IMG/VR virus record: IMGVR_UViG_2778261313_000007
Length of the DNA: 17,248 bases
DNA from: a virus
Lineage: Duplodnaviria > Heunggongvirae > Uroviricota > Caudoviricetes
Strand: one strand, 5' to 3'
A program made the translations under genes and the position numbers. Below, piece after piece: positions 6,990 to 16,271 of this stretch; the stretch's first letter is position 1; every line of letters begins with the position of its first letter. The notes under the pieces were generated by a model. The model saw only the letters and a program-made list of their open reading frames with translations. It was not told the DNA's origin and did not search any database.

Positions 6990-8513
6990 TTATTCATTTT
7001 GAGTATCAGGAGATTTTTCTTTTTCAGTCTCACCCTCACTCACGACGCATGTATTTAGCATGTGTTTTTCTGCCTCAATTTCTTTAAAGACCTGAGACGG
7101 ATCTTGACCCATTTCCATAATGACCTGAGCTTTAGACTTCAATCCGCTTTCTATTAACAGAACTTCACTCTGAATATCTTTGATCGGTTCAATAGACGTA
7201 ACGCGAGGTCTAATAATTGTCGTTGCATCCAAAATAGAATCGATCTGCGTCATGCGAACATTGATTTTTGAGTTAATTACCGCGTGACGTAAAAACGCCT
7301 CAAATAATGGAAGAATAACAGTATCAACTAAGCGATCTTGATGCGTCTTGAAGCGAGCGGATTCAATATTATGACCGAATTTTGCTGATGAGTAGTTAAT
7401 AGAACTTGTATCTCCTGTAAGAGCTTGTTTAAAGCTAGACAGACCCATAGAAATAGAAGTCAGCATTGCTTCATTGAATTTTTCGAAATCATCGCCGCCT
7501 TGAGTTGATTGTACCGTTTTAACGTCTTGCCCCGGTTCCAGTATATTGATAGTACCCGGTTCGAAGTCAGTGATCATTGTTGGCGGTTGATAGTTTTCCG
7601 TGTCATCTTCACCAACATCAAATGAATCTTGATTTTCTTTATCGCTTGTGATAAAGGCCATGCTGCTTGCGTGCACGCGCTTACCGATTATTACAGTCTC
7701 GCGGAACGCTTCAAGATGAGCTATATCTTTGATTATTGGCAAGAAATCAGTAATACCACGTAATGCGTCGGCTGTACCAGGGATAAAGTAATGCAGCACT
7801 CTTTCCGCCGGGATTCGTACACGTTCGCCAGTAAAGGACTGAGTAAACAGGTCACGACGCCTAAACCAATATGCAACGGGCTTTTCATCTTCATATTCGA
7901 TGCCAGCGTAAACGACATTACCGTTATCTAAGGTGCGCTGATCTGACCAATCAACACAATCCGCACCATAAATGGATACTTGCAGATCCTTACCATCTTC
8001 ATGGAGTACCAGAAACGCATCACCACCCATCACGCGCTCTTTTTCCATCAACTTTAAGCATTCAAGGAAGTTAATCTTTCCGATGCGCGAGAATCGTTTC
8101 TGAGAGCTAGCCCAACGCCAAAAAGCATTCTCAATAGCGGTGTTAGTGGTTGCGTCCAGCTTTTCCCCTTTCATAACGAAGGTTCGAGGCTGTAAGCCAG
8201 TACCTACCACGGAATCAATAACGTGTTGGCAATAACGGGAGCCAATAGAAGTGTTTAACGCAAGATAACGGCCTTGATTGTATAGACGTGATGCGGACCC
8301 CTTAATCGCGCTGTTAATGCTGCCAGTGATGACATTACGCGCCATACTTCCTTCAATGCGGTCGCTTTCAACCAATCCCAAAGAGCGTTTATGTAAGTCT
8401 TTGGTAAATTCTTCAATCTTGCGATCTACAAATAATTTGCGGTGTTGGCGAATACCGATTTTCTTAACCGGATTCACGGGCATATCTTTTTTGCGTTTGA
8501 AAAAATTAAACAT
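6990..8513 (-). CDS. portal protein (lambda gpB-like family)
   Basis: ATG 8511-8513 with AAGGA SD overlapping the stop of the upstream gene, stop TAA 6990-6992. 507 aa, located between terminase and capsid. The stretch ISMGLSSFKQALTGDTSSINYSSAKFG resembles the lambda-family portal core as I recall it. Confidence 0.7.
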   Translation of the reverse strand: MFNFFKRKKDMPVNPVKKIGIRQHRKLFVDRKIEEFTKDLHKRSLGLVESDRIEGSMARNVITGSINSAIKGSASRLYNQGRYLALNTSIGSRYCQHVIDSVVGTGLQPRTFVMKGEKLDATTNTAIENAFWRWASSQKRFSRIGKINFLECLKLMEKERVMGGDAFLVLHEDGKDLQVSIYGADCVDWSDQRTLDNGNVVYAGIEYEDEKPVAYWFRRRDLFTQSFTGERVRIPAERVLHYFIPGTADALRGITDFLPIIKDIAHLEAFRETVIIGKRVHASSMAFITSDKENQDSFDVGEDDTENYQPPTMITDFEPGTINILEPGQDVKTVQSTQGGDDFEKFNEAMLTSISMGLSSFKQALTGDTSSINYSSAKFGHNIESARFKTHQDRLVDTVILPLFEAFLRHAVINSKINVRMTQIDSILDATTIIRPRVTSIEPIKDIQSEVLLIESGLKSKAQVIMEMGQDPSQVFKEIEAEKHMLNTCVVSEGETEKEKSPDTQNE

Positions 8514-10997: not shown

Positions 10998-11040
10998 GTA
11001 ATTACCCTCATTACGAAATATGAAGGTATTTATTAAATTG

Positions 11041-11070
11041 TTGATATTTTGATAAATACGGTATTAAGAT
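11041..11070 (+). promoter_or_regulatory. candidate sigma70 promoter for the 11084 operon
   Basis: TTGATA at 11041-11046 followed by TTAAGA/TAAGAT-like -10 candidates at 17-18 bp. Weak -10, so low confidence. Confidence 0.3.
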
Positions 11071-11083
11071 TTAAGGAGGGTGT

Positions 11084-11680
11084 ATGCTAATTAATCAGCA
11101 AGAAAGAGATGAATTAGCCTTGTCTTGTACCGATCATGAATATCGTTTGCCAGTAAAACATAAGCACTTAAAGACCGATTACACTACATCCGGTTTTAGT
11201 CGCGAAGAAGCGAAAGAGATTTTAATCGAGTTGTATCGCGATCATGGGTATACCGATATTCACAACTTCTTTAAGAAGCATAGAACATCACATACAGAGT
11301 TTCGGAGAGTCCGAGATTGGTTTGATTTTGATATCAAGCGTTATTATCGCATTGATGACGGTCCTATCTATCGGTTGCAGTGGAAGCCGATCCGAGAAGT
11401 GTTGAAACAGAAGAGATTGAATCACGCTATTACACGCTATCGTAACGAGGCTTTCAAGAAAGGCTATGGTGATACAAGGGAACTATTCGTTGAACTCGCT
11501 AACGTGAAGTACAGCCACTATTACAACGATCCTAAATCCTTCTTTGAAGTGCTTCGCAAGGTTGATATAAGTCGGGGTACATACTATTCACGGTTGAAGA
11601 AGTACGGGATTAAGGCAGAGTTCTTTATGTCGGTTGACGATGGAGAACTTTTTCCGATAAAATGTAAGTCCTCTAAATAA
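11084..11680 (+). CDS. DNA-binding protein with C-terminal helix-turn-helix (resolvase/IS-type HTH-like); regulator or possible small terminase
   Basis: ATG 11084 preceded by AAGGAGGG SD. 198 aa. C-terminal DISRGTYYSRLKKYGIK matches the HTH-like motif shared with the two small proteins at 11715 and 14977. Divergent from terL. Confidence 0.55.
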   Translation: MLINQQERDELALSCTDHEYRLPVKHKHLKTDYTTSGFSREEAKEILIELYRDHGYTDIHNFFKKHRTSHTEFRRVRDWFDFDIKRYYRIDDGPIYRLQWKPIREVLKQKRLNHAITRYRNEAFKKGYGDTRELFVELANVKYSHYYNDPKSFFEVLRKVDISRGTYYSRLKKYGIKAEFFMSVDDGELFPIKCKSSK

Positions 11681-11714
11681 AAGTGAACATTCACTTTAAT
11701 TTGGAGAAATGACT

Positions 11715-11942
11715 ATGACTACTAAAACTACTCGCGGTCGTCCTGCCCGTTTTAACGCTGAACAAATGGCTGATATTGCCTACGCTTATTATACAGCGGA
11801 TCGTGGTAAGGAAGCGAAAGAACAGATTCTTAGTGAACATGGGATTTCAATTGCCCAATTCTATAAGAATATGAAGAAGTTAGACATTAAATTCTATGTT
11901 CAGATCGGTGATGGTCAGATCGTAGAAGCAACAGGTTTTTGA
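11715..11942 (+). CDS. small DNA-binding protein (AT-hook-like RGRP N-terminus plus HTH-like C-terminus)
   Basis: ORF-track ORF starts at 11709, but the GGAG SD at 11703-11706 is better spaced for the second ATG at 11715 (MTTKTTRGRPAR...). Motif GISIAQFYKNMKKLDIK is paralogous to 14977..15159. Followed by a strong terminator. Confidence 0.45.
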   Translation: MTTKTTRGRPARFNAEQMADIAYAYYTADRGKEAKEQILSEHGISIAQFYKNMKKLDIKFYVQIGDGQIVEATGF

Positions 11943-13734: not shown

Positions 13735-13934
13735 AGTGGAAATCCTCTAAAAGAAAGTGAATCAATCTAATATTATTTATAAAGAGAAAATTCTTGTTAT
13801 TATGAAAGGTGATTGTATTCAGTCGGGCAAAGCCCTCCTTCATAGATTTTGAATAAATCATCATCAAAACGAAGAAGTATCTTTAGAATATAAGAATCTT
13901 TCTTTTGGAGAAATAATAATCAGGAAGCAATTTG

Positions 13935-13963
13935 GCAACCGAAGGTTGCAATCCCGAAGGGAT
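13935..13963 (-). other. tandem UUCG-type hairpins
   Basis: Two adjacent inverted repeats: GCAACC-GAA-GGTTGC (13935-13949) and ATCCC-GAA-GGGAT (13951-13963). On the minus strand both read as C(UUCG)G tetraloop hairpins. Confidence 0.4.
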
Positions 13964-14089
13964 AACCAATACCTTTCTAGAAAGTGATTGTTACTCACTT
14001 CGTTCGTTTACTAGAATCAGTTAGTAACTAGTATTAAATCCCTTTCTGAGAAAATCCTTTCAAAAGCGAGTGAACGCCGTAGGTGTGAA

Positions 14090-14169
14090 CGTGAGCGAAG
14101 CGAACTATCCAATCCCTTTCGAATCCTGCTTGCAGGTCTTAGAAGGTGTTGATGGGCGCTTCGCGCACG
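14090..14169. repeat. extended imperfect dyad symmetry centred on a CCTGC-TT-GCAGG palindrome
   Basis: Arms CGTGAGCGAAGCG (14090-14102) and CGCTTCGCGCACG (14157-14169) are reverse complements with one mismatch. The midpoint coincides with the palindrome at 14125-14136. Partial symmetry extends out to about 14073-14180. Confidence 0.6.
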
Positions 14170-14310
14170 GCTACGCCGTATTCTTTTTGCGAGATCTTTC
14201 TTGAACGTAGTGAGAGAAAACGAGCAAAAAGGAGAACGTTAGTTCGAATTTTATATTCTATGGTCTGTGTGGTGAAATGTCTTTCAAGATCATACACTTA
14301 TGAGATTGAA

Positions 14311-14407
14311 GTGTAGGGTTAGTGTAGGTGTGTAGGTGTTATAGTGTAGGTTTACTGGCTAGTGTAGTGTAGGCCAATCCCTTTAAAGCGTAGGTTTGTA
14401 GTGTAGG
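14311..14407. repeat. cluster of seven direct GTGTAGG(T) repeats (iteron-like)
   Basis: Six exact GTGTAGG copies starting at 14311, 14322, 14330, 14344, 14367 and 14401, plus the variant GCGTAGG at 14388. All in the same orientation, 8-23 bp apart, immediately left of an AT-rich tract. Confidence 0.7.
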
Positions 14408-14413
14408 TTTTTC

Positions 14414-14430
14414 ATCAAAAATTTTGATAG
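14414..14430. repeat. 15-bp palindrome ATCAAAAATTTTGAT (operator-like), copy 1
   Basis: Perfect palindrome at 14414-14428. The 15-mer CAAAAATTTTGATAG (14416-14430) recurs exactly at 14565-14579. Confidence 0.6.
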
Positions 14431-14515
14431 AAAATTCTTGTATATTATTTAACCAGAAAATCACCAAAAACCGCTGTAAATGCATGATTTAAAAAGAATT
14501 ATCAAAAGGTCGTCG

Positions 14516-14524
14516 TGCTATAAT
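14516..14524 (+). promoter_or_regulatory. extended -10 promoter candidate
   Basis: TGcTATAAT (TG at 14516-14517, TATAAT at 14519-14524). The -35 is weak. Confidence 0.4.
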
Positions 14525-14564
14525 AGGTTATAAAGGTTGATAATCGTTATCCGCCATTTTCACA

Positions 14565-14579
14565 CAAAAATTTTGATAG
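14565..14579. repeat. copy 2 of the CAAAAATTTTGATAG element
   Basis: Exact 15-nt direct repeat of 14416-14430, lying about 25 bp upstream of the -35 of the strong plus-strand promoter. Confidence 0.6.
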
Positions 14580-14604
14580 TCATTTCTCGCTTAGATCAAG
14601 TGTA

Positions 14605-14633
14605 TTGACAACTATCAAGGATTATTTTATACT
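14605..14633 (+). promoter_or_regulatory. near-consensus sigma70 promoter
   Basis: TTGACA (14605-14610), a 17-nt spacer, then TATACT (14628-14633), directed toward the 14977-16529 genes. Confidence 0.6.
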
Positions 14634-14921
14634 TTTTCTCGTTGGTAGGGGTTGAAATTTTCGAAACAATCCCCATATTGATGATACGCAAGATTTTTTC
14701 GTGTATAAATACATGCATGAAAATGATTGTTCACTTCTGAAAATCCCCTGATTCACTGTTAATTCATACAGCACTGGCTAAACATACAGTACTTATTCGA
14801 TTGAATAATGTACGAATTGATTAATTATTAATCTTCTCTTTAGCAATTCGTGCTCCCACTGATCGGATATACAGTGGTTTTACAGGGTTTTTCGAAAAAC
14901 ATTTTATAAATAGAATTGTTC

Positions 14922-14941
14922 AGAGCAAAAAGCTCTTTTTT
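14922..14941 (+). terminator. weak hairpin plus T-run just upstream of the 14977 RBS (attenuator or leader terminator candidate)
   Basis: AGAGC-AAAAA-GCTCT followed by five to six T residues. Short AU-rich stem, so low confidence. Confidence 0.3.
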
Positions 14942-14976
14942 AAGAAATCATTATTCCAGATTTAGGAGGATATAAG

Positions 14977-15159
14977 ATGGCACGACCTGTTAAGTTCACT
15001 CGTGAAATCGTTTTAGAAATGGCAAAGCGTTATTTTGAACTGACACCTGATGTAGTGATGGGTGAATGGTTTAAAGGTGAAGGTATTGATCAATCAACCT
15101 TCCACAAACTCTTAAAGAAGTATGACATTAAAGTAAAGATTACCGCCGAGGTCTGGTAA
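14977..15159 (+). CDS. small DNA-binding protein (HTH-like), paralog of 11715..11942
   Basis: ATG 14977 preceded by AGGAGGA SD. 60 aa. N-terminal ARPVKF and C-terminal GIDQSTFHKLLKKYDIK align with the other two HTH-like proteins. Confidence 0.5.
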   Translation: MARPVKFTREIVLEMAKRYFELTPDVVMGEWFKGEGIDQSTFHKLLKKYDIKVKITAEVW

Positions 15160-15275: not shown

Positions 15276-16271
15276 ATGAAAAATTCTAAGCGCATTACCT
15301 TCAACATGTTTATTAAATCCAACGGCAAACTGAACATCACTGTCATGGAAGGTAAAGCAAGCAAACAAGACAAATCCTTTGAAGTAGTATCAGGTAAGAC
15401 TCTGACCGAAATGCGTCAGAATGCTGGCATCAAAGACGGTGCTGAATGGCAGATCACCAACCGTTTCGACAAACGTCACGTTAAACCTACACTGGTAGAA
15501 GGTGAATCCGTTTATTGCTTCGCTCGTGCTGTTAAAGCTGATGAAACTTACTATCTGGCTGTTGTTAAAACTGCTTCCGGCTTCCGTGCTGTAATGCATC
15601 ACAAGAGCAAACGTAACGAATACGGCGTAGAGACCCAGGAAGTCGCAAAACGCTTCCGTACTGTTGCTACCGAATCCACTGTAAAGGATGTTTCTGGTAC
15701 TGTTAACACCGCTAAAGGCGGTTCCTTCTACAACCACGCATTACAGGTTACTTCCTCCTTCTTCTGCAAAAAAGAAGCACAGAAAGAAGTTTCTCCGGTA
15801 GTAGTTGAAGAAGTTAAAGAAGAAGTTGCAGTGGTTGAATATTCCGAAGTTGAAGCACTGAAAGCACGCATCGCTGAACTGGAAGCTGAAAACGCATCTC
15901 TGAAAGCTGAACTGGCAGCACAGGAAACCACTTTCGAAGTAGCAGCGGTTGAAGTTGAAGCAGTTGAAGAAAAATCCATTGATGAAGAACTGGAAGAACT
16001 CCTTAACTATCGCTGGGGTGTTGTTGCAGAAGTAGAACAAGAAGTTGCTCCGGTAGTTGTTCCGGTTGAAGTTGAAGAAGAATCCGCACCTGTTACTAAC
16101 TTTGAATCCCTGCGCAATAACTTTATGGCTAAATTCAAAACCACTTGGGAAGATACCGAAGAAGAACAAGAAGAGATTGAAGTAAACGAAGACGAGATCC
16201 GCGAAGCACAGATGGCACTGCATGACGCTATCTACGACACCAACTACAGCGCCTACGCATACGCAGCTTAA
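15276..16271 (+). CDS. two-domain protein: basic N-terminal domain plus acidic coiled-coil C-terminal half; high-expression codon usage
   Basis: ATG 15276 with AGGAG SD. 331 aa. The C-terminal half is dominated by E/V/A with heptad-like EALKARIAELEAENASLKAELAAQE. Codons are strongly biased to CTG/CGT/GGT/GCT/TTC/AAC, unlike the rest of the window. Confidence 0.65.
   Translation: MKNSKRITFNMFIKSNGKLNITVMEGKASKQDKSFEVVSGKTLTEMRQNAGIKDGAEWQITNRFDKRHVKPTLVEGESVYCFARAVKADETYYLAVVKTASGFRAVMHHKSKRNEYGVETQEVAKRFRTVATESTVKDVSGTVNTAKGGSFYNHALQVTSSFFCKKEAQKEVSPVVVEEVKEEVAVVEYSEVEALKARIAELEAENASLKAELAAQETTFEVAAVEVEAVEEKSIDEELEELLNYRWGVVAEVEQEVAPVVVPVEVEEESAPVTNFESLRNNFMAKFKTTWEDTEEEQEEIEVNEDEIREAQMALHDAIYDTNYSAYAYAA

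Follow-up and report, generated by a model that had tools for sequence, protein, structure and literature searches.

Two conserved 15-bp elements around a candidate early promoter of an E. coli prophage resemble host IHF sites

What is the role of two identical 15-bp sequences that lie on either side of a candidate early promoter in a prophage of E. coli? The 15-mer CAAAAATTTTGATAG occurs exactly twice in the 17,248-nt stretch of DNA analyzed here (hereafter the window), at positions 14416-14430 and 14565-14579, i.e., 149 bp apart. The original prediction regarded the two copies as operators for a dimeric repressor or activator of the rightward operon, and much of what it described was borne out by our analysis. 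The palindrome ATCAAAAATTTTGAT (14414-14428) is perfect, with 7-nt arms around a central A, the 15-mer recurs exactly 149 bp downstream, the two copies flank the extended -10 element TGcTATAAT (14516-14524), and the second copy is found ~25 bp upstream of a TTGACA -35 box (14605-14610). The description of the copies as two identical symmetric sites, however, did not hold. In its own context the second copy reads CACAAAAATTTTGAT and its symmetry is limited to a 5-1-5 core, the true 7-1-7 palindrome being a property of the upstream copy only. We refer to the upstream element as site 1 (14414-14430; ATCAAAAATTTTGATAG, or cTATCAAAATTTTT on the minus strand), which comprises the palindrome and the first 15-mer, and to the downstream element as site 2 (14563-14579; CACAAAAATTTTGATAG), which contains the second 15-mer.

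The similarity between the two copies is directional and covers 20 of 23 positions (CAAAAATTTTGATAGnnAnTTCT). Past those 23 nt the two 149-bp units are unrelated, and a tandem duplication of 149 bp was rejected on this ground. As a null model, the 1.1-kb non-coding gap in which both sites are located (13868-14976) was subjected to 1000 dinucleotide-preserving shuffles. The longest exact direct repeat reached at least 15 nt in a single shuffle (1/1000), while a 7-1-7 palindrome was absent from 903 of the 1000. The 15-mer repeat is unlikely to have arisen by chance. The search of the genome for additional copies, which had been proposed along with the operator idea, returned none with up to two mismatches, either in the window or across the 35,164 bp of the prophage in E. 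coli H2 (NZ_CP028733). Both sites contain an A5T4 tract (CAAAAATTTTG type) and, on the minus strand, the motif TATCAAAATTTT.

The gap that holds both sites is devoid of conserved ORFs. It is flanked on one side by leftward genes, encoding a 155-aa protein, a 51-aa protein and a Rha-like regulator, and on the other by a rightward operon encoding proteins of 60, 331 and 80 aa. From left to right it contains the promoter-like sequence PL, eight direct repeats, site 1, P1, site 2, P2, a leader of ~300 nt and a terminator. PL (14255-14283, minus strand; AAGACA-17-TAGAAT) faces the 155-aa gene and is promoter-like by consensus match only. P1 (plus strand) is a candidate promoter represented by the extended -10 element between the sites, with a predicted start at ~14531; it is conserved as TGcCATAAT or TGcTATTAT in the E. 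coli and Salmonella relatives. P2 (14605-14633, plus strand; TTGACA-17-TATACT) agrees with the sigma-70 consensus at 11 of 12 positions, would start at ~14640, and carries a -35 hexamer that is invariant across all relatives. The centers of the two sites (14421 and 14570) fall at about -110 and +39 relative to the predicted P1 start, and at -219 and -70 relative to that of P2. No -35 or -10 element is overlapped by either site (P1 -10, 14519-14524; P2, 14605-14633). The stretch 14411-14604 has a G+C content of 29%, compared with 42% for the prophage, a value which is itself well below the ~51% of E. coli.

The -35 hexamer of P2 also forms the left arm of an inverted repeat that extends over the -35 element and part of the spacer (14605-14618), reading TTGACAACTATCAA in the window. 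In the comparison of 48 related loci the repeat takes the form TTGACA-NN-TGTCAA, with fixed arms and a variable central NN across the E. coli and Salmonella relatives; the window itself has TATCAA as right arm. This repeat, absent from the features originally listed, is a candidate operator overlapping a promoter core. A number of other features were considered and rejected. A small ORF between the sites, a DnaA box (TTATCCGCC) and a Fur-like sequence (GATAATCGTTATC) are not conserved in the relatives, and a possible third half-site, TTATCAAAA at 14499-14507, differs among them in its TTATC portion. A Fis site was dismissed because there is no G...C pair at 15-bp spacing, and an FNR/CRP site because the half-sites are in the reverse arrangement.

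Upstream of the sites, an array of direct repeats (iterons; 14310-14407, plus strand), consisting of eight AGTGTAGG-like units, ends 6 bp before site 1. Across the loci compared (L002-L029 and L098-L103), the array type covaries in 25 of 25 cases with the allele of the 331-aa protein encoded at 15276-16271 (plus strand), in which a variable N-terminal domain is followed by an acidic coiled coil. The alleles of this protein range from 320 to 394 aa, those that go with the GTGTAGG, GGGGCAA and CGGGGA arrays measuring 320-337 aa, and are distant homologs, sharing 21-30% identity. No known family matched it, a profile search with its positional analogs retrieved almost only close E. coli copies, and the structure model of its N-terminal domain reached a pLDDT of 33. 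We consider it a candidate array-binding specificity protein, and array and protein together look like a specificity pair, belonging either to an immunity repressor or to a replication initiator. The array types of Salmonella are CTAGGGAT and GGAATCCGGGGGA.

Downstream of P2 extends the ~300-nt leader (14641-14942, plus strand), which is taken to be non-coding since relatives differ in it by indels of 1-2 nt. It contains a hairpin, GGGGTTG..CAATCCCC (14648-14674), and ends in a terminator (14922-14942), which is followed at once by the ribosome-binding site of the 60-aa gene (14977-15159, plus strand), the first gene of the rightward operon. The leader folds better than 100 of 100 shuffles (z = -3.6) and its consensus structure is supported by five compensatory pairs, while no match was found in Rfam; it may function as an attenuator or a regulatory RNA. 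In the relatives, a hairpin resembling a terminator (GCACTGG..CAGTGC, with a U run behind it) lies within the leader. On the opposite side of the gap, an 80-nt stretch of the leftward leader (13848-13925) is 75-80% identical to unannotated intergenic repeats of 59 RB49-like T4-type genomes, and its flanking inverted repeats (CAAAACG..CTTTTG) exhibit compensatory changes among the prophage relatives.

The window is part of a ~35-kb prophage inserted in hicB, which was detected in 58 of 5426 complete E. coli genomes; for its 155-aa protein, 525 blocks are listed in the assembly index. The head genes in the window are of the lambda type (TerL gpA, portal and a protease-capsid fusion), a 559-aa large serine recombinase is encoded at the far end of the prophage, ~30 kb away, and the TerL identity to the nearest deposited phage is only 43%. 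The 35-kb prophage (L049, L050) possesses a complete virion module in addition to the serine recombinase. Repressor, Cro, replication, antitermination and excisionase genes were not recognizable in it with Pfam and PHROGs. With the exception of the Rha-like regulator, no early gene matched a family of known function, and Pfam was uninformative for the genes at the recombinase end. Searches of Pfam, PHROGs and PDB sequences with the 60-, 77-, 155-, 198- and 331-aa proteins were empty. Likewise, no match was obtained for the region against phage and plasmid collections (megablast), for the window against Rfam, or in two scans of species-representative genomes. The 17-mer TATCAAAAATTTTGATA gave 99 scattered single matches across IMG/VR with no shared context, and a metagenome scan anchored on P1 returned only the same prophage family. 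In the relative from Edwardsiella tarda (L098), the gene that comes after the early region (7413-8183) encodes reverse-transcriptase and TIR domains and is probably defense-system cargo.

Comparison of forty-odd related loci, collected from IMG/VR, NCBI and metagenomes, revealed a strongly mosaic organization. The repeat arrays are of three unrelated types (GTGTAGG, GGGGCAA and CGGGGA), and the stretch running from site 1 across P1, site 2 and P2 to the leader constitutes a separate cassette of ~0.5 kb (~14411-14915) that occurs with all three and whose left edge coincides with site 1. Both sites are kept, at a spacing of 148-149 bp, in every cassette-bearing relative (~25 sequence variants). 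Ten E. coli relatives carry an alternative cassette with another promoter region and leader, and there the sites are absent. Both sites are real and conserved, and given their location in a control region and their conserved spacing, a protein-binding role in promoter control appears reasonable. A second perfect AT-rich 7-1-7 palindrome, GATTAATTATTAATC, is situated within the leader at 14819-14833; its sequence is the same in every relative with the cassette, and the alternative cassette does not have it.

The arms of site 1 show zero to two mismatches among the variants. The left arm of site 2 is CACAAAA, AACAAAA or AAGCAAA and never the consensus ATCAAAA, which accounts for the asymmetry of this site; on the right it is always flanked by GATA, on the left by a freely varying sequence (CAC, AAC, AAG, CAT). 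In Salmonella prophages of the same gene order, P1 is kept as TGCTATTAT and lies 18 nt nearer to site 2. There, site 2 reads CACCCAAAAATTGATAG, with a T tract that is 2 nt shorter (from 4 to 2) and no dyad but with TTGATAG kept. P2 is located 135 nt from site 2, compared with ~25-26 nt in the window, and the position of site 1 is occupied by a different palindrome, ACAATTAATCAACAATTGT. Since site 2 is never symmetric and its Salmonella version has no dyad, paired symmetry is not the conserved feature; to judge from the sequences compared, the conserved feature is TTGATA(G) beside an A/T tract.

Such an element looks more like a host IHF site than like one of the paired operators of a repressor. 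Our preferred reading, which we put forward tentatively, is that the sites form a pair of IHF-type bending sites folding the GTGTAGG array onto P1 and P2. The IHF consensus WATCAANNNNTTR and the role of the A/T elements that flank it have been described previously (PMC10380432). On the minus strand, both sites (TATCAAAATTTTT) agree with this consensus at 12 of 13 positions. In each of the cassette-bearing intergenic regions examined (16/16), sites 1 and 2 both contain a match to WATCAANNNNTT, with WATCAA and TT kept and the N4 letters varying (AATT, AATA, AAAT), and no such match was found in the 1.5-kb gaps of the alternative-cassette E. coli relatives (n = 10). In four loci (L011, L012, L016 and L018) the match at site 1 lies on the opposite strand. 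The elements thus behave as asymmetric and orientation-free ones: site 2 is always asymmetric, site 1 flips, and the 23-nt similarity is directional, as expected for an asymmetric footprint of ~30 bp. The preservation of site 2 as an asymmetric unit counts in favor of IHF. Furthermore, the failure of any gene allele to track the sites, detailed below, and the lack of further copies in the prophage fit a host factor. IHF-consensus sites elsewhere in the prophage family, such as the 13/13 match at 11034-11046 described below and AATCAAGCACTTA inside the Salmonella repeat arrays, also speak for IHF.

Several observations count against IHF. At position 13 of the consensus (R), all variants of the two sites have T, whereas selection would be expected to give TTG or TTA at least sometimes. 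IHF needs no dyad, and the perfect 7-1-7 dyad of site 1 is left unexplained; in L014, site 1 is nearly a 19-bp dyad. In Salmonella, site 2 (reverse complement TATCAATTTTTGG) has lost the second T of TTR, and the palindrome replacing site 1 agrees with the IHF consensus at only 11 of 13 positions. In addition, the consensus is of low information in DNA of 29% G+C. The 17-kb window contains five matches to WATCAANNNNTT on both strands, two of which are the sites, against 3.0 expected. Finally, the whole cassette is ~90% conserved, so that the sites do not stand out as a distinct phylogenetic footprint.

If IHF is indeed the occupant, the sites would be the cores of two architectural elements of ~20-25 bp within an exchangeable promoter-leader cassette of the early control region. 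IHF would bend the DNA sharply 6 bp from the end of the GTGTAGG array, and a second bend would be introduced at about -70 of the strong promoter P2. P1 would be enclosed by the two bends, at ~-110 and +39 from its predicted start, and the array with its bound specificity protein would be folded back onto P1 and P2, whereby the level of transcription of the rightward operon would be set. IHF binding, bending and the direction of the regulatory effect are all predicted here from the DNA sequence. The closest parallel of such a mechanism would be the IHF-dependent control of the dual promoter at lambda pL. Work by Giladi et al. in 1992, which is cited in PMC1874639, reportedly placed IHF sites upstream of lambda pL, with its dual promoter pL/pL2. 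By analogy, in both cases a strong early promoter with a weaker promoter in tandem before it would have IHF-type sites on its upstream side, the main promoter core is free of these sites, and the host is E. coli. Unlike lambda pL, the sites described here match the consensus at 12 of 13 positions with R always T, include one perfect dyad, bracket the upstream promoter at a spacing of 149 bp, and are predicted to bind IHF. In broader terms, it is most probable that the two sites bind a protein or bend the DNA, and that as a pair they shape a nucleoprotein complex between the array and the early rightward promoters.

A serious rival to the IHF reading, which we consider somewhat less likely, is that the sites are operators of a dedicated, sequence-specific looping regulator that recognizes half-sites of the CTATCAAAA type. 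Such a regulator, phage- or host-encoded, would act as a dimer or higher oligomer, with site 1 as a full dyad and site 2 as a strong half-site, and would trap P1 in a 149-bp loop in the manner of GalR at OE and OI; the P2 inverted repeat might join the complex. The perfect dyad of site 1, of the kind missing from 903/1000 shuffles, and the identical 15-mers on either side of P1 agree with this idea, and so does the geometry. Like sites surround the predicted P1 start (~-110/+39) at 148-149 bp in all variants, the center-to-center distance of 149 bp corresponds to ~14.2 helical turns, and site 2 is 41.5 bp (~4 turns) from the center of the P2 inverted repeat. Moreover, three of the seven CTATCAA motifs of the window fall within 200 bp, and the other palindrome at the Salmonella site 1 position is what would be expected of an operator with changed specificity. 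However, site 2 is asymmetric in all variants, the promoter cores are clear of both sites, and the prophage has no further operators. The half-sites of the P2 repeat are oppositely arranged (TTGACA..TGTCAA vs. ATCAA..TTGAT), so that one rigid dimer would be unable to bind both the sites and the P2 repeat. As regards operators of the lambda/P22 type, a dyad is present in site 1 but not in site 2 or its Salmonella version, neither site overlaps a promoter core, and no linked regulator gene was found to covary. The operator idea of the original prediction is sustained in part by the control-region location and by a spacing conserved in ~25 variants, and weakened by the asymmetry of site 2 and by promoter cores that are left free.

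A comparison can be drawn with gal OE/OI, where looping depends on GalR and HU. In both systems two near-identical sites ~110-150 bp apart lie on either side of a transcription start and leave the -35 and -10 elements uncovered. In contrast to gal, no cognate regulator was found here by covariation, the second site is not a dyad, and the loop would leave out a second, stronger promoter. No allele of any gene within 4 kb, among them the 60-, 77-, 198-, 51- and 155-aa, Rha and TerL genes, tracks the presence or absence of the sites, and the same is true for the genes at the recombinase (left) end. Relatives without sites carry 60-aa alleles that are 97-100% identical to that of the window, and family searches detected no repressor-type family in the element. 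A dimeric regulator of the rightward operon, as originally proposed, is thus consistent with where the sites lie but finds no counterpart in a gene whose alleles covary with them.

Candidates for a dedicated regulator would be three small HTH proteins whose N-terminal arm is of the R-G-R-P or A-R-P kind. These proteins, of 198 aa (11084-11680, two repeats), 77 aa (11709-11942) and 60 aa (14977-15159), appear to be paralogs within a single small three-helix family that has an N-terminal basic arm, judged for the 77-aa protein by alignment (30% identity to the 60-aa protein) and for the 198-aa protein by reading the sequences. The AlphaFold model of the 60-aa protein comprises three helices (pLDDT 74). 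Its neighbors in the PDB are mostly HTH DNA-binding domains, in line with a dedicated regulator, but none of them is significant (best E = 1.3). An Edwardsiella homolog of the 198-aa protein has a faint match to Phage_Nu1, and the 198-aa protein, encoded divergently from TerL, may serve as small terminase subunit. The 86 bp that separate these two genes contain a perfect 13/13 match to the IHF consensus, TATCAACAATTTA (11034-11046, minus strand), beside TTGATAttTTGATAA; this element may be part of a cos/packaging or late-promoter region.

The half-site TATCAAAA, with its A-tract toward the dyad center, is similar to the hix half-site, TTATCAAAAACC, a likeness that we counted in favor of a dedicated regulator. 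Hin binds the hix half-site through an HTH and a GRPR minor-groove arm, and the small three-helix proteins of the phage have a similar R-G-R-P-like N-terminal arm. We regard the coincidence of a hix-like half-site and an RGRP-like arm as a lead only. A hix-type site spans 26 bp, with two 12-bp half-sites and a 2-bp core, and is linked to a small serine invertase. The dyad described here, on the other hand, measures 15-19 bp, has no 2-bp crossover core and is not associated with an invertible segment or an invertase gene, the only recombinase being the 559-aa large serine recombinase ~30 kb off.

Another reading, which we deem unlikely, extends the regulatory role to the P2 repeat. Sites and repeat would be operators of an unrecognized regulator in a prophage family without a canonical repressor, and immunity would derive from the arrays of 7-9 repeats, which covary with the fast-evolving coiled-coil protein of 320-390 aa, together with the structured, terminator-ended leader RNA.

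It is quite unlikely that no specific protein is involved and that the A5T4 tracts act as intrinsic bends, providing curvature upstream of P2 and/or nucleating H-NS silencing. CAAAAATTTTG represents a classic bent A-tract/T-tract junction, and tracts of the CA4T4G type are intrinsically bent. The low G+C content of 14411-14604 (29%) within a 42% G+C prophage of an E. coli host, as well as a near-consensus P2 in an element with no recognizable repressor, would suit such a role. Conservation, however, reaches beyond the A/T tract, as GATA(G) and the one-strand WATCAA are also kept in every variant. In Salmonella the T tract has shrunk from 4 to 2 while TTGATAG stays, which argues that specific letters are retained and not the tract.

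We consider it very improbable that the sites are a historical by-product with no regulatory role, i.e., a short duplication, a recombination junction or a linker for module exchange. In favor of a by-product, the cassette has its left border at site 1 whichever of the three array types it adjoins, the two copies form a direct and directional repeat, only site 2 occurs in Salmonella, and the same gap holds the segment that is ~80% identical to the intergenic repeats of RB49-like phages, in which such cassettes have been proposed to mediate shuffling (PMC2839356). The gap does share with the PeSL cassettes of RB49-like T4-type phages the character of a short, conserved intergenic regulatory cassette at a mosaic junction (PMC2839356), but the 15-mers have no RB49 counterpart, and the matched RB49 repeats are not equated here with the published PeSLs. 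Against a by-product, both copies are near-intact in ~25 variants in which neighboring positions vary, and a single-copy deletion product without P1 was found in no relative. WATCAA is retained through the flip in orientation of site 1, which suggests selection.

In the layout of its control region, the prophage also resembles iteron replicons such as mini-F (RepE) and pSC101 (RepA), as a direct-repeat array lies beside an AT-rich stretch and an inverted repeat is found near the promoter of a downstream operon encoding the array-specific protein. In mini-F and pSC101 the inverted repeat consists of half-sequences of the iterons and varies together with them. The palindrome examined here is, on the contrary, unrelated to the GTGTAGG unit and unchanged across the three repeat types, being the same with GGGGCAA and CGGGGA arrays and with different alleles of the specificity protein, so it does not qualify as a Rep autoregulatory inverted repeat. 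A replication origin, with the array as initiator-binding region and the AT-rich 15-mer stretch as DNA-unwinding element, is extremely improbable, for although the array lies beside 29% G+C DNA and has a covarying specificity protein as in iteron-plasmid and lambda origins, and no replication genes are recognizable elsewhere in the element, relatives with the alternative cassette keep their arrays without the AT-rich stretch, the DnaA-box-like TTATCCGCC is not conserved, repeat-like sequences overlap promoters, which suits operators, and the palindromes have no sequence in common with the repeats of the array, in contrast to the Rep operators of mini-F and pSC101.

As the sites look more IHF-like than operator-like, they represent an element of an ordinary, promoter-proximal kind in an unusual phage. 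Their surroundings are more interesting than the sites themselves, namely the covarying arrays and fast-evolving protein, the inverted repeat over the P2 -35 element, the structured leader and the RB49-like segment. The sites are a way into the control region of a prophage lineage of E. coli, Shigella and Salmonella that is widespread and entirely uncharacterized. Whether they are occupied by a bending protein of the host or by a regulator of the phage bears on how the array communicates with the early promoters and also on how the prophage stays silent. Should the reading with an unrecognized regulator be true, it would mean that this lineage employs a hitherto undescribed type of lysogeny switch.
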